From positions 4,000,001 to 4,064,000 of the forward strand of contig CBDETY010000003.1 of assembly GCA_965243025.1 (NCBI GenBank): 64,000 nt of DNA, in the 5' to 3' direction. The translations under genes were made by a program, and so were the position numbers. The DNA is from Candidatus Latescibacterota bacterium (GTDB lineage Bacteria; Latescibacterota; UBA2968; UBA8231). Below, piece after piece: positions 10,669 to 55,001 of this stretch (its first letter is position 1; every line of letters begins with the position of its first letter). Below the pieces are notes generated by a model. The model was given only the letters and a program-made list of their open reading frames with translations. It was not told where the DNA came from and made no database searches.

Positions 10669-13600
10669 GTGACCTTCGTCTCCTGTCGCAACCCACGCCT
10701 GCACTTCGCAGCCGCCCTGAGTGTCGGCGTTGCGCCGGGCTGCACCACCCCTCACCGGTTCCCCCTGCGGTCCGTTTCCCGGCTCGCCGCAGCAGTCGGG
10801 GTCGCGCTGTTCGCCTGCCTGACGCCGAGCTGCGCAACCAGTCAGCACTCCCTGATCGAATGGAGGTACAACTCCGCCGATGCCGGCAGCAGCCGCTTCG
10901 CCCCGATCGGGGAGATCGACAGCACCAATGTCGCCGACCTGCGGATGGTCTGGCGCTGGCGCGCCCCCGATCTGGAACTCCACCGCACCCGGGTTCTCGA
11001 GAACGACGGCGGCGACAATCAGTGCACGCCGCTGATGGTCGGTGGAACTCTCTACGTCTCCACCCCGCTCAACACCGTCGTCGCGCTCGACCCGGAAACC
11101 GGTGAGGAGATCTGGCGCTTCGAGAACCCCGATGTCTGGCACATATCCGACTACATGGGTACCCACCGCGGCGTCGCCTACTGGAGCGACGGCGCGCGGG
11201 AACGCATCCTCTTCGGCACAGGCACCGCCTACCTCTACTCCCTCGACGCGAAGACCGGGCTGCCCGACCCGGAGTTCGGCGACGGCGGCCGCATCGATCT
11301 GCTCGACCATTTCGACCGGCCTGTCTGGCGCGGCGCCCTCTCCGTCACTTCGCCGCCGATCGTCTGCCGCGACGTCCTCGTCACCGGCTGGTTCGCCAGC
11401 GATTGGTACTGGGATGGCGCGCCGCCCGAGAAAACGCCTCCCGGGGCCGTGTTCGGGTTCGACGTGCGCACGGGGAAACGACTCTGGACCTTCCATTCCA
11501 TTCCCCGGGAAGGGGAATTCGGCGTCGATACCTGGGAAAACGATTCCTGGAAAACAGCGGCCCGCGTCAACGTCTGGACCATTCTGAGCGCCGACGAAGA
11601 GCTCGGCTACATCTACCTGCCGTTCGGCAACCCCGACAACGAGTACTACGGCGGCGCCCGGCATGGAGACAACCTGTACACATCCAGCCTGGTCTGCCTG
11701 GAGGCGCGCACCGGCAAGCGCGTATGGCACTACCAGACCATGCGCCACGGCCTCTGGAATCTCGACCTGCCGCACGCCGCCATGCTCGTCGATGTCGAGG
11801 TGGACGGCAAGCCGGTCAAAGCCGTCGCTCAGCTGACGAAGCAGGCCTTCTGCTTTGTGCTCGACCGGGTCACCGGTGAGCCCCTGTGGCCGGTCGAACA
11901 GCGGCGGGTACCCGCTTCGACCGTGCCCGGAGAGCGGATGCCGGACACGCAGCCGTTCCCGACCAGGCCTGCGCCCTACGATCGCCAGGGCCTGACGGAA
12001 GAAGACATCATAGACTTCACGCCGGAGATACGGCGGGAAACAATCGAGTTCATCTCCGAGTACGACTACGGTCCTCTCTACACGCCTCCCTCGACTCGGG
12101 GAACGATCATGGTGCCGGGGCTCATCGGTGGCGCCACCTGGTGGAACGGGGCCGTCCATCCGGAAAAGGGGTGGATATACGTCTCTTCCCAGACCAAGCC
12201 CGGGCTCGTGGAACTAGAAGAGAACGACGAGCATCCGCACGGGTTCACCGGCGACAGCCGGGACGTGCGCGGGCCGCGGGGACTGCCGCTGACCAAACCC
12301 CCGTACGGCCGCATCGTCGCCATCGACCTGAACACCGGGGACCACCGCTGGATGAGGCCCATCGGCAAAGGGCCGGTCGACCATCCCGAGCTCCGCGAAC
12401 TCGACCTGCCTCCCCTCGGGTCGGCGACTCGCATCATGCCGATGGCGACCAGGACCCTCCTGTTCGCCGTTACCGACCAGCCGTTCGATCCGCGCCGGTG
12501 GCGCTACCGCGGCCAACATTACATCGACCCCGAGCCGTACCTGTGGGCCTTCGATCTCGACGACGGACGGCTGATCCATCGCCTGGAGCTTCCCGCCAAC
12601 GGCAGCGGCCCACCCATGTCGTACGCCATCGGCGGCCGACAGTATATCGTCGTGCCCCTGGGCGACGAAGACACCCCCGCGGAGTTCGCCGCCTACGCAA
12701 TCCCGCGCAAAGGTGAGAAGCTGCCGATGCAGCCGACCCGCCGCACGGATGCCGGGCACCCGCTTTTCTACGAGGCGGTTCGGGCCGTCGATTCAGGCGA
12801 CACGACGGCCCTTTCCGACCTGCTCCTGAAACATCCCGGCCTCGCCCGCGCACGGGGATACCTCGATCCCCACTACAAATACCCCGGTTTCCGCGGCGCG
12901 TCGCTGCTTCACCTCCTCGCCGGGGAGCCGCTGCATCGAGGTGAGCTGAAGGGGGACGCGGGGCGCATGGCGCAGCAACTGCTCGATGCGGGCGCCGATC
13001 CCAACGCCGTCACCGTCGACTCTTTCGCTACGCTTTCACTGGTCTATGACAGCCGCCAGACCGGGTGGTTGGGCATCAGGGAGGAACTGTTGCGCCTGCT
13101 TCTCGACGCCGGAGCCGATCCCGACGAGCGCAGGGGATATCTCCTGTGGGCGGCTGTGCGGAATCAGGAACACGACCTGGCGGAGCTGTTGCTCTCGCAT
13201 GGGGCCACGTTCGATCTGCGCACGGCCGCGGGCATGGGCCGGATGGATGTCCTGGCCAAGTTCTTTCGAGAGGACGGCAGTCTCACTCCCGATGCCCACA
13301 GTGGTTATGTCCCCCACTTCCCGGCCGCGGTCGACATTCCGGTCGAGGAGGAGGATGTGCTGACAGAGGCGGTTACCCTCGCTGCCCGCGGCGGGCACGC
13401 CGAAGCCCTCGAGTTCCTGCTGGACCGGGGGGTAGACGTCCACTCCCTGTCCGTGCGATTCTGGTGGCGGGGCGACAAAGGAGCGACTCCCCTGCATCAC
13501 GCCGCGGGCAACGCTCGACTCGGGGCGGTCCGGCTCCTGCTCGGCAGGGGGGCGGACCCGAACATGCCGAACCAGTGGGGATCGACGCCGCTCGATTGGG

Positions 13601-13680
13601 CTCGTTGGGCGGACGACGATGCCGAAGACAAGCAGGAAGTGATTCGCCTTCTGGAGGAAGCCGCGGCTGAACGCGAATAG
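10669..13680 (+). CDS. PQQ-dependent dehydrogenase-type beta-propeller fused to C-terminal ankyrin repeats (start uncertain)
   Basis: TPLMVGGTLY, HRGVAYW, LDAKTGLPDPEFG, TSPP, ADEELGYIYLP, HGLWNLDLP, KPPYG, PMSY..GRQY; then ankyrin repeats such as GATPLHHAA...GADPN...GSTPLDWA. A GAGGAG RBS lies upstream of GTG 10669. Confidence 0.85.
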   Translation: MTFVSCRNPRLHFAAALSVGVAPGCTTPHRFPLRSVSRLAAAVGVALFACLTPSCATSQHSLIEWRYNSADAGSSRFAPIGEIDSTNVADLRMVWRWRAPDLELHRTRVLENDGGDNQCTPLMVGGTLYVSTPLNTVVALDPETGEEIWRFENPDVWHISDYMGTHRGVAYWSDGARERILFGTGTAYLYSLDAKTGLPDPEFGDGGRIDLLDHFDRPVWRGALSVTSPPIVCRDVLVTGWFASDWYWDGAPPEKTPPGAVFGFDVRTGKRLWTFHSIPREGEFGVDTWENDSWKTAARVNVWTILSADEELGYIYLPFGNPDNEYYGGARHGDNLYTSSLVCLEARTGKRVWHYQTMRHGLWNLDLPHAAMLVDVEVDGKPVKAVAQLTKQAFCFVLDRVTGEPLWPVEQRRVPASTVPGERMPDTQPFPTRPAPYDRQGLTEEDIIDFTPEIRRETIEFISEYDYGPLYTPPSTRGTIMVPGLIGGATWWNGAVHPEKGWIYVSSQTKPGLVELEENDEHPHGFTGDSRDVRGPRGLPLTKPPYGRIVAIDLNTGDHRWMRPIGKGPVDHPELRELDLPPLGSATRIMPMATRTLLFAVTDQPFDPRRWRYRGQHYIDPEPYLWAFDLDDGRLIHRLELPANGSGPPMSYAIGGRQYIVVPLGDEDTPAEFAAYAIPRKGEKLPMQPTRRTDAGHPLFYEAVRAVDSGDTTALSDLLLKHPGLARARGYLDPHYKYPGFRGASLLHLLAGEPLHRGELKGDAGRMAQQLLDAGADPNAVTVDSFATLSLVYDSRQTGWLGIREELLRLLLDAGADPDERRGYLLWAAVRNQEHDLAELLLSHGATFDLRTAAGMGRMDVLAKFFREDGSLTPDAHSGYVPHFPAAVDIPVEEEDVLTEAVTLAARGGHAEALEFLLDRGVDVHSLSVRFWWRGDKGATPLHHAAGNARLGAVRLLLGRGADPNMPNQWGSTPLDWARWADDDAEDKQEVIRLLEEAAAERE

Positions 13681-13831
13681 GTTCGCGTTTGCGGGGTAGC
13701 CCTGTGGTGTTTCAGGTCAACCTGCAACAGGGCGCGCATTGACAGGGCTGCGCATTGATACAAGGCTCCGGGGTGGTCTGCAGGTGGACGCTTCGGCGGG
13801 CAGTCCTATCCCTCCTGAATCCGTTCCGGCG

Positions 13832-15019
13832 TCACACCCCCAGCTCCCGCTTGGCCTCCGCGAACTTCTCCAGTGCGAAATCGAGGTCGTCGCGGGTGTG
13901 GGCGGCCGACATCTGGGTGCGGATGCGCGCCGCTCCGTGGGGAACGACCGGGTAGAAGAAGCCGATGACGTACACCCCCTTGGCGAGCATCAGCGCCGCC
14001 ATCTCCTGCGCCAGGCCGGCGTCGCCGAGCATGATCGGAACGATCGCGTGGGAGCCCGGGCGGAGCTCGAAACCGAGGCTTTCCAGGCCCTGGCGGAAAT
14101 GGCGCGTGTTCGCCTGCAGCTGCCGCCTGAGCTCCGGTGAGCGGCCGATAATTTCCAGAGCCTTCAGCGAAGCCGCGACGATGCTCGGGGCAAGGGTGTT
14201 GGAGAACAGGTAGGGACGCGAGCGCTGGCGCAGCAGGGCGACGATCTCCCTGCGGCCGCTGGTGTAGCCGCCGCTGGCCCCGCCGAGGGCCTTGCCGAGG
14301 GTGCCGGTGATGACGTCGACGCGGCCTTCGACCCCGCAGTGCTCGTGCGTGCCGCGGCCGTTCTCGCCGACGAACCCGACCGCGTGCGAGTCGTCGATCA
14401 TCACCAGGGCGTCGTGCTCGTCGGCGAGGTCGCAGATCTCCGGAAGCTTCGCGTAGTATCCGTCCATCGAGAAGACGCCGTCGGTGGCGATCAGCCGGAA
14501 GCGGGCGGAGGCCGCTTCCTTGAGGCAGCTCTCCAGCTCCCCCATGTCGCTGTTCCCGTAACGCAGGCGCCGCGCCTTGCACAGGCGGATGCCGTCGATG
14601 ATGCTGGCGTGGTTGAGCTCGTCGCTGATCACCGCGTCCTCCGCGGCCAGCAGGGTTTCGAACAGCCCGCCGTTGGCGTCGAAGCAGGAGGAGTACAGGA
14701 TCGTGTCCTCGGTCCCGAGGAACCCGGAGATGCGCGCTTCGAGGGCCTTGTGGATCTGCTGCGTCCCGCAGATGAAGCGCACCGACGACAGCCCGAACCC
14801 CCACTCGTCGTAGCTGCGGCGCGCCGCCTCGATGATCTCCGGGTTGTCGGCGAGGCCGAGGTAGTTGTTGGCGCACATGTTGAGCACTTCCCCGCCCCCA
14901 TCGGCGATGCCGACGCGGGAACCCTGCGGGGTGGTGATGGTGCGCTCCTCCTTGAACAGGCTGGCGGCCTTTATGTCCGCTATCTGGGCGTCGAGATGCT
15001 CCTTGAGGGCTTCGTTCAT
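13832..15019 (-). CDS. kbl: Glycine C-acetyltransferase (2-amino-3-ketobutyrate CoA ligase)
   Basis: [57 protein letters not shown]. Confidence 0.95.
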
Positions 15020-24294: not shown

Positions 24295-27200
24295 TCAACC
24301 CGGTCGACTCACGTCGATTACACAGACCGATATTTTGCGCGCCTCTTCGGGAGACAGGGTAGCTTTCAGCTGCTCCTTCAGCTCCTTGGCGTTCATCGGA
24401 GAAGTGCCTGAGGGAGGCGGTACCTGTGTGTGTTCTTTTCCAAACCAGAACACAAGGTAAATACCGTACCCGTCTGTCTCCGGATCGGTGGTGTACTTTG
24501 GGATCAATTGGTTTCGCGGAGCACTCCAGAGATCCGGATGTGAATTCTTCTTGATTTCCAGCGGAACCTGAAAATCCCCGTATGCAACTCGTATGTCCGC
24601 CCGCTTGTTGTTGACGTATTGAATCTCGGGTTCGGCATTGGAGAAGTACCGCCTTAGATCTTGCAGCAGCGCATCTCGGCAAGAGTTCTCGTGCTTCGGG
24701 GTTGTCGGTCTCTGGCTTTCGTCCTCGTTCCAGTACGGACGCCAATAGTTGGCATTGTTCGTACTAACTCGTTCTGCGATTTCATCGAAGCGGTCCACCA
24801 TAAGGGCGGCAAGGTCAGCTGCGTTGGCCGGCGTTCCGCCGTTCAGCGTTTGACAGACCTGCTTGATGCTCAGGTGACGGTAACCGGCGTCACGGCAGAT
24901 CACCCGTTGGGCATCCTGCGCCCGAGAAAGCTCCTCGTGCCAGTTGGTCAGCTCCGGGTCGGCGACCAGCCTGCAAAGAGCATGGCTCGACTCCTTTGTG
25001 GGAGAAGCGGCGAGGCGTTGGATCTGACCGTAGACAAGCCATGCAGCTTCCATTTCCGGCCCTACGAACCCGCCCTCATCATCATCCGCATTACCAACTC
25101 GCCTCTGATCCGGTCCGACGCAGGTTCCAACAAGGCGTATGAGAAGCTCCAATACCGGAATCCCCAGATCGTCAAAGGAAAACCGAATGGGATCTTGAAA
25201 GGAAAAGAACTCAGCCAGATTCGAAATTCGGCGCTCGTTGCCCTCTGCGAAGTCAGACAACAGGGCCTTGTACCTCGCGGGCGAGACGATGACCCCCAAA
25301 GCCAACCAACGCACGCGCTGGGCGTCGTTCATGCTCTTCCGGGATAACTTCATTCCGATCAGTTCCTGAAGCGCAGATCTGTCTGCATGCTGCAGTGCCG
25401 CCCAAAGCAGATGTTTCAGGTTTTCGATCTGGTGCAGCTTGCAGCGAGTCGGAAATGCGCGGAGCAGGGGCATGCTCGCATGTCTGGCGACTTGCGCGTG
25501 ATTCTCTCTATGGGCGAGCGCAAAGAGTCCGGTAAGCTTCCTACCGCCACGGAGTTCGACCTTGCCGGACAGTATCATTACATGGGCTACGATACCGGGC
25601 TCTGAATCGAGGAGGCGTTGGTACCAATTAGGCTCGATGGAACTGGACAAAGAAAAATGGAATGCCAGTGCTTTGCGCATCTGACCTTCATCGAGGCGAC
25701 ACAGCTCCTCTGGTGAGGATCTTTCGAATTCCGACAGGGCGGCAAGAAACGGAAAGCCGAGATAGTGCCTGCGATCCGTTGCTCTGAGCGCCAGAATCTC
25801 CTCATCCCCCGGAACGTCTTTCCGGTCGACAACCCCACGGATACCCATGATTGCTGCATCGATCAAGTTGGGATCTTCCAGCTCCTGCTCTATATCCTTC
25901 GGTCCTCCTTGACGGTGAACATTGATGGAATTTCCGAAGTACCTGATCGCAATCTGTTCAAGTAAGGCGGGGGCTGCTCGGTTCTCACGCAGCGCGACTT
26001 CGTTGGAGCGGATAAGTTCGAGCCATTGCTCTTCTCGCAGCCGTCGTTCCTCGGTGAATGTCCTCGCCCGTTCCCGCAATCTCTGTTGCCGCGGCGTAAT
26101 AGACCGAGGAGCAAGCAGTTGATCCAGTTTGGGCTTCAGCCATTCTCTTTTCTCTGCGTGATCCTGCAGTACCTCGAGGGACAGTCCCTCGTTTCCGTTT
26201 TGAGAAGCGTGCGCGCTGACCGCCAACTCAAACAGGTGTTCTGCAATCTCCCGCTTAGAGCCTTCCATGGAGACGGCCTGCTTCAGGCACCAGAGACCAA
26301 AGTCGGACGGCAGGCTTGAACCGTACCATCGTTCCGAGATCTCTATTACGTGTGGGCTGAATCCGTCAGACTCGAGACAGCGCTCCAAACCCTTGATTAC
26401 GAGGACCTTCTGAACCTTTGGACGCTGCTCCAGCCAGGAGCGTATCTCCTGGATGTCCTCCATGTCGCCGACTTGGATTTCGTCCAGATCCTCCGTGAAA
26501 CCCAGATTTAGCCAATCATACAGACGCTCTGTCGCCAGTCGATCCCCGTGCACTTGCAGGCCTCGGGCGAGCAGCTTCACGGGAAGGTTCTCAAGAGTGC
26601 TACTGCCCTTCAGAGTTGGGTGCGTGTCCGCAGGACGCTCGCCCAAAGTGTCGAGGAGCTCCGCGATCTGATCGTCTGAGGACTTCTCAAGAAGGGCGAA
26701 CCAGAAAAACCACTTGTACATGCCGAAAAATGACTCTCGGTGACGTGTCTCGAAATAGATGTCACACACCTGCGACGGTGAAAGGTGCTTGGGATAAAGT
26801 TCGTTTAGCAGGATTCCCAGGAGTTCGTTGTCCGGATCGGAGACGCGTCTGTTGCGGATATCAGCAAGCAGCGATTTAAAATTGTCGGCCTTACCCTGGC
26901 TTTCCGGGCAGTTGTGGATGAAGGCATTGAGAGCGGATGCGTTGACGCGAGGCCAGCGTGTATCGTCCCGGGCAGTTGCGATCAGGAGCACGCCAAGGTC
27001 TGACAAGGGCTTACCTTCGGTCAGTACGCGCAAGACGAAATCGGTGAACATCTGGTGGTCCGGGCTGCGATCGCTGTCCCGAAGCGCCTCGCTGAGATCG
27101 ACTTCCATCTCAGACGTAGCGAGGGCGCCAAAGGCCTCCGCAGACCTCCGTACTGTACCAAGCCGGGCCCCCTCTCGCTTCAGGGATTTCAGCAGCGCCC

Positions 27201-28374
27201 GTTTCTCGTCGACAGAAAACTCTCCGATTTCTCCGTACAGTCCGACACCGATCGGGTCGCGTTCGATGAGATCAGGCCTGGCTTCCCTGGAATTGGCCGC
27301 CAGCCAGGCGGACAGGCCCCGCATCTCGGTGACCACGGTGCCGTCCTCGCCCGTTATCAGGGAAATAACCCGACGGGCGGGGAGGCCGTTCTGGACGACC
27401 CTGGCGAGGTGCCGGGCACCGAGGAATTCAGCGACATGGCGATGAACGGGGATAAAGCGGTTGCTGGAGGCGCCCTTGAACAGCTTCGTGGCGAGTGCGG
27501 AACGGAGCACTTGGGGGTCGTAATCGCACTTGTCCAGAGCGGGGTACTCCTCGTCCGGCTGGCCGCGCAGGGTGTAGCCCGCCCCGCCCGAAATCAGTTG
27601 AAGTGCGCAGAGACGTCCGGCGGCGTCGAGGAGCTGGTCGTGGGGGGGTGAACTTCCCGACTCTTGCGACGCTTGATGCTCCTCGTTGTGCTCGAGGACC
27701 ATCTGGCCGCTGGCCATCTCGAAAGTCTCTTTTCGGCTCTCCGGCCACCCCCCACCCCCGCCAACGACATCCGCCAGCATCTCCAGGGTTTGCGGGTTCT
27801 CCAACAGGCCCTCGACGCCCCGCTTCCGCGCTTCCTCGATGAAGGCCCCGGCATCTCCGATTTCCGCCCGAGCATCCAGGATCGAGGTGACATCCGTATC
27901 CGTCAGGGGATAAAGCCGCAGGACCCTCAACGGGGAATCCGGTGAAACGGATTCCAAATGCTTCTGGTCATTTTCTCCCAGCCAGTCCGCTTCCCGGCAG
28001 GACAGCCGGAAGCGCGGCTTGCCCAAGGCGTCCAGCTTCCGCCGGACCTGGTCGAAGGGCGTGCCCACGTTCGACGTGCCGGCTCGGATCTCATCGAGTC
28101 CGTCGATGAAGAGGATCTTGCCGCGCCACTCGGGGTGGTGCTGCGGATCAAAGGCCAGAAAGTCGCGGGCGGGTATCTTCAACGCCTGCTCCCCAAGCGC
28201 CTCGCACTCGGCCTCAAACGCAGTCGTCTTGCCGGCCCCAGGGTCCCCGAGCAGCACGTAGGCCGGCGCGTCGCGGAACTCCTCCAGGGGCCGGGACCGC
28301 TCGTCCCCAGGCTGATTCCGCTGCTCCTTCCTTGGGGGGATTTCCGTACAGGTGCGGGGTACGATCACCTTCAT
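24295..28374 (-). CDS. NACHT/STAND NTPase with a C-terminal PD-(D/E)XK-like nuclease domain (candidate anti-phage NLR-like protein)
   Basis: Walker A LLGDPGAGKTT, Walker B LFIDGLDE, LSCR, NPQTL, HRHVAEFLGA; C-terminal ENSCRD...RADI...PLEIK...QL..KY...GIYLVFWFG. The ATG at 28374 overlaps the upstream TGA. Confidence 0.85.
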   Translation of the reverse strand: MKVIVPRTCTEIPPRKEQRNQPGDERSRPLEEFRDAPAYVLLGDPGAGKTTAFEAECEALGEQALKIPARDFLAFDPQHHPEWRGKILFIDGLDEIRAGTSNVGTPFDQVRRKLDALGKPRFRLSCREADWLGENDQKHLESVSPDSPLRVLRLYPLTDTDVTSILDARAEIGDAGAFIEEARKRGVEGLLENPQTLEMLADVVGGGGGWPESRKETFEMASGQMVLEHNEEHQASQESGSSPPHDQLLDAAGRLCALQLISGGAGYTLRGQPDEEYPALDKCDYDPQVLRSALATKLFKGASSNRFIPVHRHVAEFLGARHLARVVQNGLPARRVISLITGEDGTVVTEMRGLSAWLAANSREARPDLIERDPIGVGLYGEIGEFSVDEKRALLKSLKREGARLGTVRRSAEAFGALATSEMEVDLSEALRDSDRSPDHQMFTDFVLRVLTEGKPLSDLGVLLIATARDDTRWPRVNASALNAFIHNCPESQGKADNFKSLLADIRNRRVSDPDNELLGILLNELYPKHLSPSQVCDIYFETRHRESFFGMYKWFFWFALLEKSSDDQIAELLDTLGERPADTHPTLKGSSTLENLPVKLLARGLQVHGDRLATERLYDWLNLGFTEDLDEIQVGDMEDIQEIRSWLEQRPKVQKVLVIKGLERCLESDGFSPHVIEISERWYGSSLPSDFGLWCLKQAVSMEGSKREIAEHLFELAVSAHASQNGNEGLSLEVLQDHAEKREWLKPKLDQLLAPRSITPRQQRLRERARTFTEERRLREEQWLELIRSNEVALRENRAAPALLEQIAIRYFGNSINVHRQGGPKDIEQELEDPNLIDAAIMGIRGVVDRKDVPGDEEILALRATDRRHYLGFPFLAALSEFERSSPEELCRLDEGQMRKALAFHFSLSSSIEPNWYQRLLDSEPGIVAHVMILSGKVELRGGRKLTGLFALAHRENHAQVARHASMPLLRAFPTRCKLHQIENLKHLLWAALQHADRSALQELIGMKLSRKSMNDAQRVRWLALGVIVSPARYKALLSDFAEGNERRISNLAEFFSFQDPIRFSFDDLGIPVLELLIRLVGTCVGPDQRRVGNADDDEGGFVGPEMEAAWLVYGQIQRLAASPTKESSHALCRLVADPELTNWHEELSRAQDAQRVICRDAGYRHLSIKQVCQTLNGGTPANAADLAALMVDRFDEIAERVSTNNANYWRPYWNEDESQRPTTPKHENSCRDALLQDLRRYFSNAEPEIQYVNNKRADIRVAYGDFQVPLEIKKNSHPDLWSAPRNQLIPKYTTDPETDGYGIYLVFWFGKEHTQVPPPSGTSPMNAKELKEQLKATLSPEEARKISVCVIDVSRPG

Positions 28375-29624
28375 GCTTCCTCGAACCAGTGATGGGCGGG
28401 AACCGTGAGAAACTCGTTGAGGGGTATCCCACCCTCCCCGACCCGCAACGAGCGGTGGGGGCTGAAGCGTTTTTCGAACTCGTCCATTCCTGGCAATTGG
28501 GTTTTCATCGCGCCGCTCTTCACCTCGATGGCGACAAGCCGGGAACCCCGCTTCAGGACGAAGTCGACCTCCTGGGATCCGTCCCGCCAGTAACCAAGAC
28601 GGACATCCGGCGCGGCGGTGTTGAACAGGTGCGCCCCTGCCGCGCTCTCCACGATGCGGCCCCAGAAGGTGCGGTCCGCCTGAGCCTCCTCGAAGGAATA
28701 CCCGGAACCGGCCGTCATCAGCGCCGTGTTGAGCACATTGAGCTTGGGACTGGAAGCGCGCCGGGAAGCGCGGCTGCCGGTGTATTTCTGCAGGCCCGCG
28801 AGCAGTCCGGCGCTCGCCAGCAGGTCGAGGTAGCGCGCCAGAGTAGTCGTGTTCCCTGCGTCCTGAAGCTGCCCCAGCATATTGGTGTACGACAGGATCT
28901 GCCCGGAACAGGAGGCCCCAAGCTCGAAGAGCCCCTTCAGCAGTGCCGGTTTGTCCACCCGGGTCAAATCGAGGAGGTCGCGCTCGATGTTCGGCTCCAC
29001 GAGAGCCCCGAGGATGTAGCTGCGCCACCGGTCAGGCTCCCGGACGAGCCGGTCGGCCCCCGGGTAGCCTCCGAAATAGAGGTATTTCGGCAGGTCGACC
29101 CCGAAGGCCCTGGACATCTCCGCAAATGACCAGTGGGTGACGCGGATCGGTTCGAATCGGCCTGCAAGGCTCTCGCTCAATCCCGACTGCATGAGCAGGG
29201 GAGCCGAGCCGAGGATGACCACGTGCAAGGGACAGTCTCTGGCGCGGTCGGCGTCCCACAGCCCCTTCACGGTGTCGGACCACCCCTCGATCTTCTGGAT
29301 CTCGTCCAAGACCAGCACAGACCCACGCGGCGCACCTTCAGCCTCGAGCCGGGCTTCTTCCCACTGGCGCACCAGCCATTCCCTGTCCCGCTCCACCGGC
29401 GTACGGAACGTGGCCTCGGCCTCACCGTACGGGTCCCGGAACTCAGGAGAGTCGGGCTCATCGACGGCCAGGTAGCGGCTCCCCAAATCAGTGCGTCGCA
29501 GAGCCTGGCGCACGATGGTGGTCTTGCCGGTCTGACGCGGGCCGAACAGGGCGATGAGGAGATGGGGCGGCTCCGCGAGCCGCTCGACGAGTGTGTTTAC
29601 CTGTGAACGTTCGAAAGGCTGCAT
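28371..29624 (-). CDS. AAA_14 ATPase with a DUF4143 domain
   Basis: GPRQTGKTT, LVLDEIQ, ILGS, ESLAGR, GGYP, YWRD..QEVDFV...AIEVKSG. Confidence 0.9.
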   Translation of the reverse strand: MQPFERSQVNTLVERLAEPPHLLIALFGPRQTGKTTIVRQALRRTDLGSRYLAVDEPDSPEFRDPYGEAEATFRTPVERDREWLVRQWEEARLEAEGAPRGSVLVLDEIQKIEGWSDTVKGLWDADRARDCPLHVVILGSAPLLMQSGLSESLAGRFEPIRVTHWSFAEMSRAFGVDLPKYLYFGGYPGADRLVREPDRWRSYILGALVEPNIERDLLDLTRVDKPALLKGLFELGASCSGQILSYTNMLGQLQDAGNTTTLARYLDLLASAGLLAGLQKYTGSRASRRASSPKLNVLNTALMTAGSGYSFEEAQADRTFWGRIVESAAGAHLFNTAAPDVRLGYWRDGSQEVDFVLKRGSRLVAIEVKSGAMKTQLPGMDEFEKRFSPHRSLRVGEGGIPLNEFLTVPAHHWFEEA

Positions 29625-29765: not shown

Positions 29766-29990
29766 CTATTTCACCTTGAGGAGCTCTTCAACTCTGAGCC
29801 CGATATCACTTGCGATTTGACGAAGCAGAATGGGCGAAATGTCTCGCCCCTTGTGGAATGGAACGGTCGTTCCTCTTCCATCCGCATGGCGATACTGTTT
29901 GTGTGAACCTCGCTGACGCACTTCGCGAAAGCCGAGCATCTCGAGCAACCGGATCACTTCTCGAGGTTTGAGTGCCGGTATATCGGGCAT
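29766..29990 (-). CDS. hicA: HicA family toxin
   Basis: MPDIPALKPREVIRLLEMLGFREVRQRGSHKQYRHADGRGTTVPFHKGRDI. Confidence 0.92.
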   Translation of the reverse strand: MPDIPALKPREVIRLLEMLGFREVRQRGSHKQYRHADGRGTTVPFHKGRDISPILLRQIASDIGLRVEELLKVK

Positions 29991-30196
29991 CAGGTAGTGA
30001 CTATCTGTTGTATACCGACAAACTCGGAATCCAGATCCGGCGCGCCGTCCTCGAGAAGCATTTCGACCACTTCCTTCAGGTTTTCGTTCAGTTCGTCCAA
30101 CGTCTCCCCCTGCGAATGGGCACCTGCAAAACCAGGCACGTACCCGACATACAGCCGGGTATCCCTGCACCATTCCACAACAGCAGTAAATCGCAT
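29990..30196 (-). CDS. hicB: HicB family antitoxin (short, no DNA-binding domain)
   Basis: MRFTAVVEW...YVGYVPGFAGAHSQGETLDELNENLKEVVEMLLE. Its stop overlaps the hicA ATG. Confidence 0.9.
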   Translation of the reverse strand: MRFTAVVEWCRDTRLYVGYVPGFAGAHSQGETLDELNENLKEVVEMLLEDGAPDLDSEFVGIQQIVTT

Positions 30197-43638: not shown

Positions 43639-45243
43639 ATGGCAACCGCACCAAAAAAACATAGAACCACCAAAGCCAAGACTAAACCGGACGACACCGT
43701 CGTTCCCGACTACAGGCCCGAGCTGTGGCGGATGGCCGACGCCCTGCGGGGCAGCATGGACGCCGCCGAGTACAAGCACGTCGTCCTCGGCCTGATCTTC
43801 CTCAAGTACATCTCCGACGCCTTCGAGGAAGCCCACGCCCAACTGGAGGCCGAGGCAGACCAGGGAGCGGACCCTGAAGACCCGGACGAGTACCGCGCCC
43901 AGAGCATCTTCTGGGTGCCGCCCGAGGCGCGCTGGACCAAGCTGCAAGCGCAGGCCCGCCAGCCCACCATTGGCCGTGCCGTGGACGACGCCATGACCGC
44001 CATCGAGCGGGACAACCCGGCGCTCAAGGACGTGCTGCCCAAGGATTACGCCCGCCCCGCCCTGGACAAGACCCGCCTGGGACAGGTGGTGGACATGGTG
44101 AGCAACATCAAGGTGGGCGGGGCCGAGGCCCGCGCCACGGACGTGCTGGGCAGCGTCTACGAGTATTTCCTGGAGCAGTTCGCGCTGGCCGAGGGCCGCA
44201 AGGGCGGCGAGTTCTACACTCCGCGCTCGGTTGTTCGCCTGCTCGTGGAAATGCTGGAGCCGTACCAAGGCCGGGTCTACGATCCTTGCTGCGGCTCTTC
44301 CGGCATGTTCGTCCAGTCGGTGGAGTTCATCCGCGCCCACGCCAGCGGCAACGGCAACGGCGGCAATGCCAGTGCGGACATCTCCATCTACGGCCAGGAG
44401 TCCAACTACACCACCTGGCGCATGGCCCGGATGAACCTGGCGATCCGGGGAATCGAGGGCCGGATCGAGCACGGCGACAGCTTCCACAACGACCGCCACC
44501 CCGACCTGCGGGCCGACTACATTCTGGCCAATCCCCCCTTCAACGTCTCTGACTGGGGCGGCGATCGGCTGCGCGACGACAAGCGCTGGGAGTACGGCGT
44601 GCCGCCCGTGGGCAACGCCAACTTCGCCTGGGTGCAGCACTTCCTCTACCACCTGTCGCCCCGGGGAACCGCCGGCTTCGTGCTGGCCAACGGCTCCATG
44701 TCCTCGAACCAGTCCGGCGAAGGTGAAATCCGCAAAAACCTGATCGAAGCCGACCTTGTGGACTGCATCGTTGCCCTTCCGGGTCAACTGTTCCGCTCCA
44801 CCCAGATACCGGCCTGCCTCTGGTTCCTGTCCCGGGGCCGCCGCAACGGAGAACACCGGGACCGGCGGGGCGCAACCCTGTTCGTCGACGCCCGCAAGCT
44901 GGGCCACATGGTGGACCGCACCCACCGCGACCTGTCCCCGGAGGACATCGCCCGCGTTGCCGACACCTATCACGCCTGGCGCGGCGGTGAGGGCACCGGC
45001 GAGTACGCCGACGTGCCCGGCTTCTGCAAGAGCGCCTCTCTGGAAGAGATCCGCAAGCACGGCCACGTCCTCACCCCCGGCCGCTACGTTGGAGCCGAGC
45101 CGCAAGAAGACGATGGGGAACCTTTCGAAGAGAAGATGGCCCGCCTCGCCAAACAATGGCGCGAGCAGCAGGCCGAGGCGAAAAAGCTGGACGCTGCAAT
45201 CGAGGCCAACCTGAAGGCACTCGGGTTCGGAGACAGTCAATGA
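43639..45243 (+). CDS. hsdM: Type I restriction-modification methyltransferase subunit M
   Basis: [32 protein letters not shown] (N6-adenine type), LTPGRYVG. Confidence 0.96.
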
Positions 45244-46979
45244 ACTACAGCGACCAGGAGATCGCTCGGCAACTTCGCCTGGGCGAGGACAGCCAATGGG
45301 AATTCAAGCAGACCGAGTTTTCCGGTAGCCGTCCAAGAAGCCCGAGCCGCAATGATTGGGCGGATGAGATCGCCGCTTTTGCCAACACGGAGGGAGGCGT
45401 TCTGCTCTGCGGAGTTACCGACGAAGGGGAGGTGCAGGGCATGTCGCGGGAGCGGATTGTCGGCCTGGACTCCCTTCTGGTCGAGGCCAGTACCGACTCC
45501 ATCAGGCCGGCGGTTCGCATCAGTACCCATCACAGAGAACTGGATGGCAAGCGGTTGCTCCTGGTCGAAGTACCTCGGAGCGAATCGCAGCATGACAGCC
45601 CGGGTGGAAGCTACGTCAGGGTAGGCGGGTCAAAGCGCCGAATGACAAGCGAGGAGCGGTTGCGGCTGGCACAGCGGCGCAGCCAGGCGCGGTTCCTGTG
45701 GTTCGACAAGCAGTCCGTGCCAAACACCGGATTGGGAACGCTGGACGAAGCGCTTTGGAGACCGTTGTTGAGCGCGGAAGGCAGGGCAGATCCGGAAACG
45801 GCGCTGGAAAAAATGGGCCTTCTCGGACGGGACGAACACGATACGATGCGAGCGACCGTCGCCGGCCTCCTCTTTTGCAGTCAGGCACCGGAGGAATGGC
45901 TGCCCAACGCCTGCATTACGGCCACCCATTACCGCGGTACGGATCGGGCCTCCGGCCAACTCGACACCCAGACGATCACCGGCCCCCTCAACCGGCAAAT
46001 TGCCGAAGCTGTCGCCTTTGCCGTGCGCAACATGCGCGTCGGGGCCTACAAAGATCCGGCCCGCATGGATTTGCCACAGTACAGTTCAGAGGCCCTGTTC
46101 GAGGCCATCGCCAATGCCGTTGCCCACCGGGATTATTCGATGCTCGGCAGCCGGATTCGCCTGTCCATGTTCGCCGACCGGTTGGAAATCCAGTCGCCCG
46201 GTTCCCTGGCCAACAGCCTGACAATAGATGAGCTGGAATTCCGGCAGGCGACGCGCAACGAGGTGCTTGCCTCGGTCTTCGGACGGATGCCGACCAGCGA
46301 TATCCAGGGAGCCGGTGGCCGGGTTTTCATCATGGAACGGCGCGGCGACGGCGTCCCCGTCATCCGGCGAGAGACCCGCGAACTCGCCGGGCGCCTGCCT
46401 CGCTTTGATCTGGTTGGGGGTGCGGACCTTCGCGTCACCCTTCCGGCGGCCTCCACCGAGCCGAGTCCTGCCCGTGTTGTCGTTTCCGTATGCGCTGGCA
46501 CCGAGCCGCTTGCCCATGCGGAAGTACTGGTGCTGTTCCCGAACAAGACCTGGAAACAGGCAACAACGGATGCGCTGGGCCAAGCCGTAATCGGCCTGTA
46601 TACGGTTGATCTGCCGATGACGGTGTTCGCGGCTGCCCGCGGTTTTGCCGCCCACTGCGAACGCGAATGGCGGCCTGCTGAAGGTGAGCTCACGATTGAA
46701 CTTGAGCCGCTTCCCGGCGGCGGTTCCGTCATTCTTTCGGAAGACAGCGGCCAAATTCCGGGGCTGAAAGGATCGCTGAATCCGATTCGAGACAACCTTG
46801 ACCGGACCTATCTCTACGCCTCGAACATCGCCATCAACCAAGGCCAGCAGCAGCCGGTACATATTGTGCTCGGCGAAGACCTGCGGCTCACCGATGTCAA
46901 TGGCGTCGAGATTACAGCGCGTATCGTGGAGATCCTGGGACGATCGGCACTGGTCGGGTACCGGCCGTTCAAGCCCTAA
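45240..46979 (+). CDS. Schlafen/AlbA_2 domain + HATPase_c_4 domain + C-terminal beta-sandwich domain protein
   Basis: [32 protein letters not shown]; [30 protein letters not shown]; all-beta tail VLFPNKTWK...LNPIRD. ATGA overlap with hsdM. Confidence 0.85.
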
Positions 46980-47046
46980 CCAGGAGGAGCGGGATTGGTA
47001 GGTTCAAACGGGCTCTTCGTCACAGTGACTAGACTTGTGGGGCGAG

Positions 47047-48465
47047 ATGCCTGATCAGATCAGAGGGGGAATTGCGGCCGATGATGTGGTGTTGCCAACA
47101 GAAAGCCTGTACCCGACAACCTTAGGATTCGAAGATGAAAAGGTAACACTGAAAGATCTCCTGATTTATACGCGTGATGGTGAGTGGGGAGCAGGAGATA
47201 TAAAACCAGATCTTATTCCCATGCGAGTTATTCGAGGTGCTGATTTTGACCCTGTAAGCCAAGGAAATTTTGAAACTGTTCCGACTCGATACATTGAACC
47301 CTCTGCGGCTGCCAGAAAGACACTACGTCCCTGGGATATACTTATTGAAACGGCAGGAGGTGGGAGAAATAGGCCGACGGGTCGCACACTGTTAATTCGC
47401 CCCCGGATCTTGCAGAGTACGAAAATCCCGGTAACGTGCGCAAGTTTTGCCCGGTTTCTACGGATCGATGACAAGCGGGCGAATCCGGAATACATCTATT
47501 GGTTCCTTCAGTACCTTTATTCCCTAGGTGAAATGGAACGGAATCAAGTTCAGCATACAGGTGTTGCTAGATTTCAATTCACTAGTTTTGCAGAGAGCAT
47601 AAAAGTCCCTCTACTTCCTTTTTCCGAACAAGACGCCATCGCCCGTATCCTCGGCACCTTTGACGACAAGATCGAACTCAACCGGCGAATAAACGAGACG
47701 CTGGAGACGATGGCGCGGGCACTGTTCAAATCGTGGTTCGTGGACTTCGATCCGGTCCACGCCAAGATGGAGGGCCGGTGGCGGCGAGGAGATTCGCTTC
47801 CCGGCCTGCCTGCCGATTTCTACGACCTCTTCCCGGATCGGCTGGTGCCCTCCGAGTCCGGGGAAATACCGAAGGGGTGGGAAATGAAAACGGTGGGAGA
47901 GGTCGTAGACGTAGTAGGGGGAACTACTCCGAGCACAAAAGTCGTCGAGTACTGGAGTGGTGGAATCCATTCTTGGGCGACCCCCAAAGACCTCTCGAAC
48001 CTCTTTTCACCAGTACTATTGGACACCGAGCGAAAGATCACAGAAGCTGGTCTGGAAAAGATTGGATCGGGTCTTCTCCCCACTGGTACCGTGCTTCTAT
48101 CGTCGAGGGCGCCAATTGGCTACGTTGCAGTCAGCGAGGTCCCTGTCGCTATCAACCAAGGTTTCATCGCCATGCCACCAAAGGATCGGATCTCCAACTT
48201 GTTCCTGCTGCACTGGTGTAACGTATTCCATGACGAAATAGTCAACCACGCAAATGGCTCCACATTTCTCGAAATCAGCAAGGGGAATTTTCGGCGTATC
48301 CCAATGCTAGTTTTCGGAGAGTCGGTAATGAAAGCATTTGACATGCAAGTCCGGTTCCTCCATTTACGCATCGCGACCAATGAACACCAGAACCGCACCT
48401 TGGTCGCCAAGAGGGACGCGCTGTTGGCGAAGCTGGTTTCCGGAGAACTTCGACTAACGGCTTAG
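47047..48465 (+). CDS. hsdS: Type I R-M specificity subunit S
   Basis: Two TRDs separated by [39 protein letters not shown] and GEIPKGW; GGTTPST, SSRAPIG; C-terminal [12 protein letters not shown]. Confidence 0.95.
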
Positions 48466-48488
48466 ACTTCACACTTAGAAGATTGCAA

Positions 48489-48899
48489 ATGAAACACTGC
48501 TGCAAAAACTTCCGTTTTCTCGCACAAACCCACGTTGGACAGTCATCGGTGATGAACATCGATTTTCATGGGATCCTCACGAACCATCCGAGTGCCATCT
48601 CGGTGGTCATTATGCGGCGGAATGCGCCAAGGGAATCTGGAGTACAAGAATTGACCCACACTTGAACTCACCCCTAAAGGATCTATTGTTTCAAGACAGA
48701 AGACATCGCTGCTTCTTTATTGAAACTCACAGAGGAATCCTTTGAAGCAGCCAGTGAGCTTCGTCGGCTCAGAAACGACAATCGTCAGCTAAAGCAAAGC
48801 TACCGATACACTCAGATCGGCTTATGGACTGCGGCCATTGGCGTTGTTGCAAGTGTAATCATGCGATTGCTCGAAAAGCTAGGATGGATTCCTCAATAA
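48489..48899 (+). pseudogene. Degraded Cys-containing protein with a C-terminal membrane helix (at least two frameshifts)
   Basis: Coding-like blocks in shifting frames: MKHCCKNFRFLAQTH / GDEHRFSWD...ECAKGIWSTRIDP...CFFIETHRG / SFEAASELRRLRNDNRQLKQSYRYTQIGLWTAAIGVVASVIM... Confidence 0.45.
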
Positions 48900-49009
48900 G
48901 TGTAGAACCAGGCAATGGCGTCACGACGATTGGACAGATGAATAACGGAGGATCCCAGCCCTGGCTGATGGCAAGGTCCTCGTCTACGAGGCACCGAGAC
49001 GTGGTGCGC

Positions 49010-50183
49010 CTAGTGTCCTGTCGTGTAAGTAACTGTACAAACAATTGAAGGTGCCGTAGGTTTCTCTTGATCCTCTTTCTGAAAGGAGAGACCTATGGTG
49101 ACGGGGCGTCCATTAACGCCGTTAGAGCTGAGTCCGTCGGACCGGGAACGATTGGAATCGATGGCCAAATCACGGAGCCTTTCCCACGGGTTGGTGCGGC
49201 GAGCCGAGATTATTCTGCTGGCCGCCGAAGGCTGGCCCAATGAAGCCGTCGCGGCCGCGGTGGGTGTGACGCGTGCTACGGTCGGCAAGTGGCGCCGGCG
49301 CTTTCTCGAAAACGGGCTCCAAGGCTTGTATGATGAGCTGCGCTCAGGGGCGCCGCGATCGATCACGGACGAGCAGGTAGCCGAGGTGGTATACAAGACC
49401 CTGAAGACCAAGCCCAAAGACCAAACCCAGTGGTCGCTGCGCTCCATGGGCGAGGAAACCGGCCTGACCAAGGATGCCGTTCATCGCATTTGGCGCACGT
49501 ATGGTTTGCAGCCCCACCGACACAAGCACTTCAAGCTTTCCACCGATCCTTTCTTTGTCGACAAAGTACGGGATATCGTCGGCTTATACCTGAATCCCCC
49601 CGAGCACGCCATGGTGCTGTGCGTGGACGAGAAGAGCCAGATCCAGGCGTTGGAACGAAGTCAGCCCATGCTGCCCCTGGGACTGGGATACGTGGAAGGG
49701 GTAACGCACGACTACAAGCGGCATGGCACCACCACCCTGTTCGCCGCACTGGACATCGCCACCGGCGCCGTGATGACCCAGTGCAAGTCTCGTCATCGTC
49801 ACCAGGAGTTCCTCCAGTTCCTGCGCCACATTGAGGCCAACGTCCCCGCTGACCTGGATATTCATCTTGTCGTCGACAACTACGCCACGCATAAGCATGC
49901 CAAGGTCAAGCGATGGCTGGCACGGCGGCCTCGATTTCACGTTCACTACACCCCCACCTATGCTTCGTGGCTCAACCAAGTGGAGATTTGGTTCAGCATC
50001 ATTACCCGCCAAGCTCTTCGCCGGGACTCGTTCCGTAAGGTGTCAGAGCTCATCGGGCGGATCGAACGCTACACGGCCAAATGGAACGCCAACGCACACC
50101 CGTTCGTCTGGACGGCTACGGCCGATTCCATCCTTGCGAAAATCAAGAGACTTTGCGAACGAATCTCTGCGACACAACACTAG
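49010..50183 (+). mobile_element. IS630 family insertion sequence
   Basis: Ends CTAGTGTCCTGTCG and CGACACAACACTAG form an imperfect inverted repeat and enclose the transposase. Confidence 0.9.
49095..50183 (+). CDS. IS630 family transposase
   Basis: HTH region, [42 protein letters not shown]. Confidence 0.96.
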
Positions 50184-51740
50184 CAGGCTGTTGAAAAAGT
50201 CCTATTTCCTAATAAAAACATAGCCTCAGACGATTGCCCGTCGTACCCGCCCTTTTCTAGATTTATGAAAGATCCAAGAAAAACGAGCCGATGCCCCAAG
50301 GAGGCCGGTGATGTCGATGAGCAAACGTCGGAAAAGTCAGCAGCAGGAGATCTGGGTGCCGACCCATACCCTCCCCGAGACCCCGAGCCATCCGTTTTAC
50401 ACCCAACTCAACCGGCTGCTGGAAGAGCATGGGTTTGATTCCTTTGTAGAAGAGCAGTGCGCCCCGTATTACGCCCAGAGGTTGGGCCGTCCCAGTATTG
50501 CTCCCGGGGTGTATTTCCGCATGCTCATGATCGGCTATTTCGAAGGCCTGGGATCGGAGCGGGCCATTGCCTGGCGGGTCGCCGATTCGTTGGCTCTGCG
50601 TCGCTTTCTCGGCTACGCCCTGACCGAGTCCACCCCGGATCATTCGAGCCTGTCGCGTATTCGTCAGCGCCTGCCCGAAGCGGTGCACGAAGCGGTCTTC
50701 GACTGGGTGCTGAAGGTGTTGTCCGACCGGGACCTGCTGCAGGGAAAGACGGTGGCGGTGGACGCCACCACGCTGGAGGCCAACGCGGCGATGCGCAGCA
50801 TCGTGCGCCGGGATACGGGCCAGGGCTACCGCGAGTATCTGGAAGGGTTGGCCCGGGCCGAAGGCATTCCGGAGCCGACCCGGCAGGAGGTGGCCCGGCT
50901 CGACCGCAAGCGGGCCAACAAGGCGTCCAACCGGGACTGGGCGCATCCCCATGATCGGGAGGCCCGCATAACCAGGATGAAAGACGGCCGCACGCATATG
51001 GCCCACAAGGCCGAACATACGGTCGATCTGGACACGCAGGCGCTGGTGGCCCTGCAGGTGTGCGGCGCCGATGAAGGGGATACCGCGTCGCTGCTGTGGA
51101 GTCTGGTGCAGGCGGACCGCAGCCTGAAAGAGGTCGGTGTCGATGAGCAGATCAGGCTGAGCGAAGTGGTGGCGGACCGGGGGTATCACAGCAATGACAC
51201 GATGAAGATGCTGAGGACGGCGGAGATCCGCAGCTACGTGGCCGAACCGGATCGCGGTCGGCGCAACTGGAAGAAGGATGCGCCGGCCAAGACGGCGGTG
51301 TATGCGAATCGTCGGCGTATACGGGGAGACCGCGGCAAGAGGCTGCAGCGGCTTCGCGCCGAGCACGTGGAGCGCAGTTTCGCTCATACCTACGAAACGG
51401 GAGGCATGCGCCGCACTCACCTGCGCGGCCACACCAACATCTACAAGCGTCTGTGTATTCATGGCGGCGCCTTCAATCTCGGGCTGGTGATGCGCAAGCT
51501 CACCGGAAAGGGAACGCCGAAAGGGTTGTATGGATTGGCATCGGTTTTCTCGACTTTTGCCGATCGCGCAAACGCTCTTTTGGGTCGAATTTTCGGTTAT
51601 TTGCGATTGTTGAGCTGTCCTTTTCGGGACCATTTCTATAAATGGGAATGTTTAGCCTGATAACCGATTTTCTTGGGAAAGGAAATCATACATCCGCGAC
51701 GTCCGGGGTTTCCGGAATAACCCGGATTTTCAACGGCCTG
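50184..51740 (+). mobile_element. IS1182/IS5-like insertion sequence with a CTAG target duplication
   Basis: Inverted repeats CAGGCTGTTGAAAA and TTTTCAACGGCCTG, flanked by CTAG at 50180-50183 and 51741-51744. Confidence 0.9.
50308..51660 (+). CDS. IS1182/IS5-like DDE transposase (DUF772 N-terminus)
   Basis: GRPSIAP, SER, TPDHSSLSR, VDATTLEANA, VADRGY, VERSFAH. Confidence 0.92.
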   Translation: MMSMSKRRKSQQQEIWVPTHTLPETPSHPFYTQLNRLLEEHGFDSFVEEQCAPYYAQRLGRPSIAPGVYFRMLMIGYFEGLGSERAIAWRVADSLALRRFLGYALTESTPDHSSLSRIRQRLPEAVHEAVFDWVLKVLSDRDLLQGKTVAVDATTLEANAAMRSIVRRDTGQGYREYLEGLARAEGIPEPTRQEVARLDRKRANKASNRDWAHPHDREARITRMKDGRTHMAHKAEHTVDLDTQALVALQVCGADEGDTASLLWSLVQADRSLKEVGVDEQIRLSEVVADRGYHSNDTMKMLRTAEIRSYVAEPDRGRRNWKKDAPAKTAVYANRRRIRGDRGKRLQRLRAEHVERSFAHTYETGGMRRTHLRGHTNIYKRLCIHGGAFNLGLVMRKLTGKGTPKGLYGLASVFSTFADRANALLGRIFGYLRLLSCPFRDHFYKWECLA

Positions 51741-51857
51741 CTAGATGTGCCTGTGGGCCGCGAGACATTTCGACTTGTCCGCCCCGACGCTTCAGAACCA
51801 AGCGCTGGTGGGCGACAGCGGGTTGGCCGCACTGGGCGTGCCGGCGGAGGCTGACGA

Positions 51858-55001
<3,144 letters not shown>

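Follow-up and report, generated by a model that had tools for sequence, protein, structure and literature searches.

Organization of the locus

The analysis concerns a pair of overlapping genes in a 64,000-nucleotide (64-kb) stretch of the genome of a Candidatus Latescibacterota bacterium (GenBank assembly GCA_965243025.1, contig CBDETY010000003.1, positions 4,000,001 to 4,064,000), referred to here as the window; all coordinates without a locus name are positions in this stretch. Gene 1 (28371..29624, minus strand; open reading frame (ORF) P0001) encodes a 417-amino acid (aa) AAA+ ATPase with AAA_14 and DUF4143 domains. Gene 2 (24295..28374, minus strand; ORF P0002) encodes a 1359-aa Erebus (EruA)-like NACHT-type NTPase with a predicted C-terminal nuclease domain. 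The two genes share the tetranucleotide ATGA (28371..28374, minus strand), which holds both the stop codon of the ATPase gene and the ATG start codon of the 1359-aa gene. Both ORFs and their overlap had been described in an earlier reading made from the letters of the window (the sequence-only reading), and they were confirmed from the sequence at the same positions. The pair is probably a two-gene anti-phage system, namely a partnered variant of Erebus/Avs10.

Conservation of the gene pair

Relatives of gene 2 were collected at E ≤0.001, which yielded 2716 proteins among 8000 scored candidates; the best 120 are 1242-1377 aa long and share 58-70% identity with gene 2. A scan of species-representative genomes provided 255 relatives, and the best 80 of these were used as NACHT-seeded loci. 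They span approximately 12 phyla or candidate phyla, with representatives from Gemmatimonadota, Latescibacterota, Nitrospinota, Rhodothermales, Acidobacteriota, Binatia, Opitutales, Chloroflexota, Spirochaetia, Alpha- and Gammaproteobacteria, Tectimicrobiota, and Nitrospira. The gene directly upstream, on the same strand, was a P0001 homologue (57-83% identity) in 78 of the 80 loci. The junction between the two genes was ATGA in 60 of these, GTGA in 9, an in-frame fusion without a stop codon in 3, and a short gap or insert in 6. The ATGA overlap exceeds chance, because a 4-nucleotide overlap of start and stop codons recurs in 69 of the 78 related loci. The two exceptions (L047 and L052) carry an intact NACHT gene behind a resolvase or AlpA-type gene, lack an upstream ATPase gene, and have an OLD-type ATPase and a type I restriction R subunit nearby.

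The reciprocal search, seeded with the ATPase, covered 168 genomes of the window's phylum, 51 of which contained a match at E ≤1e-60. A NACHT gene was found downstream in all 29 of the best matches, the fetched loci with at least 72% identity. A sister ATPase lineage with 51-57% identity had no downstream NACHT gene in any of 8 fetched loci. The genome from which the window was taken contains one pair; its 8 weaker matches are distant DUF4143 ATPases (24-35% identity), and none of the 7 distant paralogues that were fetched adjoins a NACHT gene. Pairwise identities of the two proteins are correlated (r 0.851, 72 pairs), a value reached by 0 of 999 permutations, and the mean pairwise identity is 0.635 for the ATPase vs 0.438 for the NACHT protein. 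The sequence-only reading had taken the ATPase for a coupled partner, and the linkage in 78 of 80 and 29 of 29 loci, together with the correlated divergence, identifies it as a genuine conserved partner; the pairing is not due to chance.

Additional arrangements were observed at two related loci. At L017, a divergent second copy (11746-14798) is present downstream of the first pair and consists of an ATPase with 54% identity and a short gene that encodes an EruA-like C-terminus only, in which arginine replaces the motif lysine. At L144 (2-538), a solo ATPase of the sister lineage follows the end of another EruA-like gene at a distance of about 1.7 kb downstream; this EruA-like gene has 46% identity to residues 1185-1358 of gene 2.

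The NACHT-type protein

The product of gene 2 matched the NCBIfam model NF058535 (antiphage_EruA) with 917.7 bits and an E value of 1.7e-275, where residues 20-1356 aligned with positions 8-1318 of the 1318-position model. This model is an equivalog for 'NACHT domain-containing antiphage protein EruA' and has a curated cut-off of 1000 bits. The HyoA model of NCBIfam also matched (169.7 bits), and the precomputed Pfam family of gene 2 is PF28130, which corresponds to DUF8371. Neighbor clusters in the Atlas are automatically named 'NACHT domain-containing protein', with PF05729 assigned to 12% of the members of one cluster.

A Walker A motif, GDPGAGKT, was identified at residues 43-50 (28225..28248, minus strand), with G43, D44, P45, G46, G48, K49, and T50 invariant in 25 sequences, and a Walker B motif, LFIDGLDE, at residues 88-95 (28090..28113, minus strand), with D91, G92, L93, D94, and E95 invariant in the same number of sequences. 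The Walker B motif fits the NACHT-type signature D[GAS]hDE, which is defined in a preprint by Kibby et al. Since only about 40 residues precede the NTPase, the protein lacks an N-terminal effector domain, in agreement with the sequence-only reading. The assignment of gene 2 as an NLR-like P-loop NTPase of the NACHT type with a C-terminal PD-(D/E)xK domain is supported. Two candidate links from other searches were discarded. A profile bridge from the N-terminal alignment of gene 2 to a Pfam-positive NACHT sequence (P0198) produced a match in the P-loop only, with a probability of 3.8%, and a short ribosome-recycling-factor stretch found in the PDB search with gene 2 (E 0.0026 with the single sequence and 1.8e-4 with the profile) was taken as a chance match.

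The N-terminus of gene 2 carries the motif (V/I)PRTCTE at residues 5-10 (28345-28362, minus strand). Across 31 sequences of the paired clade, R7 and T8 never vary, and C9 and T10 are each kept in 90% or more. The motif marks the paired clade and is absent from L101 and L102, which are the best matches to EruA, and it may serve in docking or regulation.

The middle region and the predicted C-terminal nuclease domain

Conservation along gene 2 was calculated as the share of 75 relatives with the commonest residue, in 50-aa bins. It was 0.56-0.71 for residues 1-400, 0.36-0.59 for residues 400-1150, and 0.62-0.70 for residues 1150-1359, so that the profile has three parts: a conserved NTPase, a variable middle, and a conserved C-terminus. 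The less conserved middle (residues ~400-1150; 24925..27177, minus strand) is the presumed sensor.

The predicted C-terminal PD-(D/E)xK domain comprises residues ~1183-1359 (24298..24828, minus strand) and has the motif E1229...D1260...E1273-x-K1275...Q1289. In an alignment of 41 C-termini, E1229 and E1273 are invariant and D1260, K1275, and Q1289 are conserved in at least 90%; the alignment takes in the best-scoring EruA homologues, in which the motif is also present. The D...ExK motif that had been noticed earlier (RADI...PLEIK) corresponds to D1260...E1273-I-K1275. A structural model of the C-terminal 220 residues (pLDDT 84.6) begins with helices and places E1229 at the opening of a helix (90-101 in the numbering of the model), D1260 before a strand (122-126), the ExK residues within the next strand (129-137), and Q1289 in the helix that follows.

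The model was compared with 48,161 solved chains and the top 50 rows were inspected, with a Z score of 8 as the line below which matches are read with caution. Nucleases of the PD-(D/E)xK type make up most of these 50 matches, including the first ten. The best Z scores were obtained with OkrAI (7.6; rmsd 4.0, 143 aligned residues), BstYI (7.5), Can2 (7.4), PaqCI (7.2), and BglII (7.2), and further matches include BamHI, McrC, Card1, HamA, and SduA. The nuclease proposed by the sequence-only reading is in keeping with the model, in which the predicted catalytic residues lie on the core helix and strands and most of the top matches, all with Z <8, are PD-(D/E)xK nucleases. Because motif and fold agree when taken together, a predicted PD-(D/E)xK nuclease domain is a sound reading of the C-terminus of gene 2.

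The ATPase

Gene 1 matched the Pfam families AAA_14 (5.3e-21) and DUF4143 (6.8e-27), both above their cut-offs, and a weak match to TniB (E 0.0036) was below the Pfam cut-off. NCBIfam (release 20) holds no family for this protein; weak YraN-type matches (E ~0.02) were confined to residues 315-374. In PADLOC-DB 2.0.0, gene 1 matched the model PDLC04791 (PDC-S01) with an E value of 2.6e-159, where residues 4-414 aligned with positions 2-394 of the 395-position model.

The Walker A motif of the ATPase, GPRQTGKTT, is located at residues 28-36 (29517..29543, minus strand), with G28, R30, Q31, G33, and K34 invariant in 36 sequences, and the Walker B motif, ..LDE, at residues 104-108 (29301..29315, minus strand), with L104, D107, and E108 invariant. 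A PD-(D/E)xK motif is also present near the C-terminus (E326...D354...E367-V-K369; 28518..28649, minus strand). E326, E367, and V368 are invariant in the 36 sequences, and D354 and K369 are conserved in at least 90%. The D...EVK motif pointed out earlier is the latter part of this motif, as EVDFVL...AIEVKSG contains D354...E367-V-K369. DUF4143 is listed within the PD-(D/E)XK superfamily in a published table (PMC3424549).

An AlphaFold model of the ATPase had a pLDDT of 73.9, and its last ~100 residues contain a helix (318-336), three strands (342-368), a second helix (379-387), and a final strand (391-395). The structure search with this model covered residues 1-310 (match region 1-308). The closest folds were the archaeal AAA+ ATPases SSO1545 and PAB2304 (2fna and 2qen; Z 14.4 and 14.3, about 263 aligned residues), followed by ORC/Cdc6, clamp loaders, CED-4, and plant NLR resistosomes; the PDB sequence search with the ATPase matched P-loop stretches only. 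On the model, the ATPase is predicted to have an ORC/STAND-like fold together with its own C-terminal PD-(D/E)xK motif.

Fusions and shared modules

Among database proteins, 81 long homologues of the ATPase were examined by length and listed domains. Sixteen of them are 1789-1834 aa long and have both AAA_14 and DUF4143; PF28130 is listed for 14 of these and is not listed for P0130 and P0149. The only long fusion that was aligned, P0152, has its NACHT part from residue 430 onward, beginning with FVQRSCTEI, and the related locus L073 consists of a single 1832-aa ORF that is fused in frame.

Part of gene 2 (residues 764-1157; 24904..26085, minus strand) also occurs fused to DUF4143 ATPases that have no NACHT domain. 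P0136 (1099 aa) joins the ATPase to a homologue of residues 764-1359 (36% identity, E 2e-106), and P0151 (866 aa), which lacks the nuclease, joins the ATPase to a homologue of residues 770-1157 (28% identity, E 5e-31). About 50 listed proteins of 740-900 aa may be of the same kind as P0151, which is the one that was aligned. Since this half-module is fused to ATPases without a NACHT domain, it is common to two NTPase chassis; and because of P0136, P0151, and the long fusions, the ATPase appears to work repeatedly with the C-terminal half of an EruA-like protein, whether in cis or in trans. A protein search for short homologues of residues 764-1157 returned 66 matches, which mostly had few members and resemble fragments. 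AAA_14/DUF4143 was also found in other combinations, namely with DUF4062 and a NACHT domain in P0198 and with a restriction-type N6 methylase and a type I specificity domain in P0194.

Relation to Erebus/Avs10 and other known systems

A sample of 400 genomes was drawn from the class of one gammaproteobacterial relative; 15 had a match at E ≤1e-50, and 3 of these scored above the EruA cut-off. The third of them, L087/L103 (1051 bits), is accompanied by the ATPase. The first two are solo genes, one with a deformylase and a transporter as neighbors and the other with relaxase, PIN, and IrrE-type genes. A FastTree phylogeny rooted on L101 placed the paired genes in one clade, with L103 basal and L102 as the unpaired sister, and L047 and L052 nested within the clade as sisters of each other. 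This topology would fit one acquisition of the partner, followed by a single loss.

The models for ProA, HyoA, and EruA are numbered consecutively in NCBIfam, and the next number is unrelated; these numbers, together with the solo loci, suggest that Erebus was defined as one protein. In the Avs10 study, Avs10 is described as a STAND family equivalent to Erebus/Hypnos/bNACHT64 that recognizes the major capsid proteins of phages by means of a TPR-like sensor (PMC13581612). According to the same study (Nature 2026), cell death did not occur when effector domains were mutated or deleted, and the Avs7 sensor is common to Dsr1 and is also found in systems without a STAND NTPase (PMC13581612). PDC-S01 is presented in another source as an ATPase fused to a PD-(D/E)xK member and as the defense that ranks fourth in frequency across prokaryotes (PMC12988326); it is listed there among putative candidates, for most of which experimental validation is pending (PMC12988326).

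Gene 2 and EruA are homologous from end to end and share their domain order, with an N-terminal NACHT-type NTPase, a long middle, and a C-terminal E..D..ExK motif. They differ in that gene 2 scores below the 1000-bit cut-off and that its clade has the upstream ATPase (78 of 80 loci) and the PRTCTE motif, neither of which is present in the best EruA matches L101 and L102. Gene 1 likewise matches PDLC04791 from end to end and has the same AAA_14 and DUF4143 (COG1373) architecture as PDC-S01. In contrast to PDC-S01, which is defined as a single-gene candidate, the lineage of gene 1 is tied to a NACHT gene (29 of 29 loci), and it is the sister lineage that is solo. Single-chain Avs/bNACHT proteins resemble the pair in combining an NTPase switch with a variable sensor and a nuclease effector, but their effector is N-terminal, whereas that of gene 2 is C-terminal and a complete second ATPase-nuclease, either in trans or fused, stands upstream of the NTPase. 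The recurrence of residues 764-1157 on DUF4143 ATPases without a NACHT domain is similar to that of the Avs7/Dsr1 sensor in the absence of a STAND NTPase, although a different sensor and a different chassis are involved and these residues are only a candidate sensing or docking part.

The sequence-only reading had proposed an inverted-architecture STAND nuclease in a possibly undescribed pair. A C-terminal nuclease without an N-terminal effector is indeed what gene 2 encodes, but the arrangement is not new and is the architecture of the Erebus (EruA)/Avs10 family. With respect to the pair, no description was found, but the ATPase family (PDC-S01, DUF4143) had already been predicted to be a defense ATPase with a PD-(D/E)xK domain. 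A check against PADLOC-DB 2.0.0, which had been suggested for the locus, returned the single-gene candidate PDC-S01 for gene 1 and no matching model for gene 2. Literature on DUF4143, PDC-S01, AAA_14, COG1373, NACHT, and STAND contained nothing on the pair, in a search that left the Erebus paper and some supplements of the Avs10 study outside its range. The NACHT family and its architecture are accordingly known and the ATPase family is known as a candidate, and the pair is apparently undescribed in that no account of it was found.

Genomic context

The GC content of the 24-28 kb region is 0.56-0.60, compared with 0.65-0.71 across most of the window, and GC at the third codon position is 0.65 in gene 2 and 0.8-0.9 in neighboring genes. 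On account of these low values, the base composition of gene 2 fits an acquisition by horizontal transfer. Directly upstream of the ATPase gene, at 29766-30196 on the minus strand, are genes for a HicB-like antitoxin (UPF0150, 27.4 bits with a cut-off of 27.3) and a HicA toxin (2.9e-19), which seem to abut at ~29990. Related loci adjoin genes for an OLD-type ATPase, a type I restriction R subunit, resolvase, relaxase, and SIR2. These loci and the low-GC island with HicAB represent a defense and mobile context, which speaks for an anti-phage role of the pair. No tRNA genes were present in the 64-kb window, and scans for promoters and terminators gave results at chance level (1 vs 1.0 expected and 6 vs 5.9 expected, respectively).

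A second defense-type island occupies 43639-55001 on the plus strand. It comprises genes for a type I restriction HsdM (43639-45243), a Schlafen AlbA_2/HATPase_c_4 protein (45156-46979), transposases of the DDE_3 (49095-50183) and DUF772 (50308-51660) types, and HsdR (51858-55001), all on the plus strand, and within it the GC content falls to 0.51 at 47-49 kb. Beside this restriction island, a 414-aa ORF (55859-57103, plus strand) had weak matches to HTH_3 and IrrE/Peptidase_M78, both of which were below their cut-offs.

Proposed function and alternative explanations

The observations that bear on function are the domain content of the two proteins, two intact NTPase sites, two intact PD-(D/E)xK motifs, a variable middle region, the linkage of the genes, their co-inheritance, and their fusions. 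Recognition of phage, cutting of DNA, binding of the two proteins to each other, and the exact role of the partner are inferred. In the proposed mechanism, the variable and presumably helical middle of the gene 2 product would act as the sensor and bind a phage protein, for which the major capsid protein is the likeliest candidate by analogy with Avs10. Binding would lead to ATP-dependent oligomerization of the NACHT protein, as suggested by its family and by general STAND biology, and oligomerization would activate the C-terminal PD-(D/E)xK nuclease, which would then cut DNA and stop the infection, probably at a cost to the cell. The gene 1 product, a predicted ORC/STAND-like AAA+ protein with a winged-helix region and a PD-(D/E)xK nuclease of its own, would be an obligate subunit kept at a fixed ratio by the ATGA overlap. 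It may dock on the NACHT protein as a second, ATP-gated nuclease or effector module and so take the place of the N-terminal effector that is usual in single-chain Avs/bNACHT proteins. The role given to the partner, that of a stoichiometric subunit and second ATP-gated nuclease, is the step held with the least confidence. A complex prediction with the ATPase, NACHT residues 1-360, and the C-terminal 220 residues, run without controls, gave a score of 0.00, which is evidence neither way.

Several results weigh against a partnered Erebus/Avs10 system. A NACHT protein of this kind cannot depend strictly on the ATPase, because 2 of the 80 NACHT genes, two EruA-level homologues, and two plasmid homologues are solo. 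The EruA-level homologues in question are the top two of those above the cut-off, L085/L101 (1318 bits) and L086/L102 (1055 bits), neither of which has an ATPase upstream; the plasmid homologues (26-35% identity) were solo in both loci inspected, out of 23 matching records. Gene 2 itself remains under the EruA cut-off, at 917.7 vs 1000 bits (917.4 in the genome search), its Pfam scan, in which the NACHT model (PF05729) was included, gave no match at E ≤0.1, and sensors of the family diverge rapidly, as the mean pairwise identity of 0.438 indicates. With regard to the nuclease, no fold match to the C-terminus of gene 2 reaches Z 8, and a Foldseek search with this region returned none at E ≤0.001 (best E 2.0e-3). 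The nuclease domains of gene 1 and gene 2 were not significantly similar in a profile comparison (E 0.17), which gives no support to a plain heterodimer of like domains. The genes adjacent to the pair in the window, HicAB excepted, are metabolic and transport genes, and the locus is known from its sequence only.

A bolder form of the same proposal regards the pair as a two-NTPase immune receptor, analogous to the sensor/helper NLR pairs of plants and animals, in which both proteins would join in one hetero-oligomer and the nuclease step would be executed by the AAA+ partner. It is offered tentatively, being conceivable but on the whole unlikely. If it were true, the abundant but uncharacterized PDC-S01 ATPases would be a portable helper or effector chassis for sensor modules, into which such modules would be plugged in trans, as in the operon, or in cis, as in the fusions of about 860, 1100, and 1800 aa.

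Among the rival explanations, the one that survives best, although it is itself unlikely, is that the ATPase is a brake, which in the manner of an antitoxin or a guard holds the NACHT nuclease silent until a phage trigger or loss of the ATPase frees it. Co-translation at a fixed ratio through the 4-nucleotide overlap, the stronger conservation of the ATPase (0.635 vs 0.438), and the existence of full fusions are what such a brake would lead one to expect, but the nuclease motif of the ATPase is intact, with every position invariant or conserved in at least 90%, and a pure brake needs none. The two intact NACHT genes that persist without an ATPase are a further difficulty, as they would be toxic in that model unless silenced otherwise.

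We regard as rather improbable a reversed or dual assignment of roles in which the ATPase senses foreign DNA and the NACHT protein senses a phage protein, with both inputs needed as in sensor/helper NTPases. The fold of the ATPase is like that of DNA-binding ORC/Cdc6 initiators and STAND proteins, some of its fusions carry the half-sensor module only, and the solo occurrence of the sister lineage (51-57% identity) in 8 of 8 fetched loci is consistent with a self-sufficient unit. DNA binding by the ATPase is nevertheless without evidence, and the best-scoring EruA homologues have no such partner.

It is very improbable that a solo PDC-S01 gene and a solo Erebus-like gene merely stand side by side in a defense island as independent defense genes. 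Both families do occur alone, as illustrated by the best-scoring EruA homologues and by the 7 fetched distant DUF4143 ATPases of the genome, which have no NACHT neighbor, but independence is contradicted by the linkage across phyla (78 of 80 and 29 of 29 loci) and the 4-nucleotide overlap in 69 of 78, and further by the parallel divergence (r 0.851), the single clade of paired genes in the tree, and the in-frame fusions. A role outside defense, for example in a mobile element or in DNA maintenance, is scarcely credible: the weak TniB match of the ATPase (E 0.0036) and mobile-element neighbors at some relatives would fit it, but neither a transposase nor a recombinase accompanies the pair in a conserved manner, the flanks vary between loci, and a curated anti-phage family matches gene 2 along its full length.

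Read as a partnered variant of Erebus/Avs10, the pair extends a group of sensors that have so far been treated as single proteins. The locked lineage, with its gene overlap, parallel divergence, and occasional fusions, would provide the first concrete functional setting for PDC-S01. The half-sensor module that is common to both kinds of protein suggests that receptor parts have been exchanged between unrelated NTPase chassis, and the pair may serve as a tractable case for learning what a second ATPase-nuclease adds to the NLR-type immunity of bacteria.

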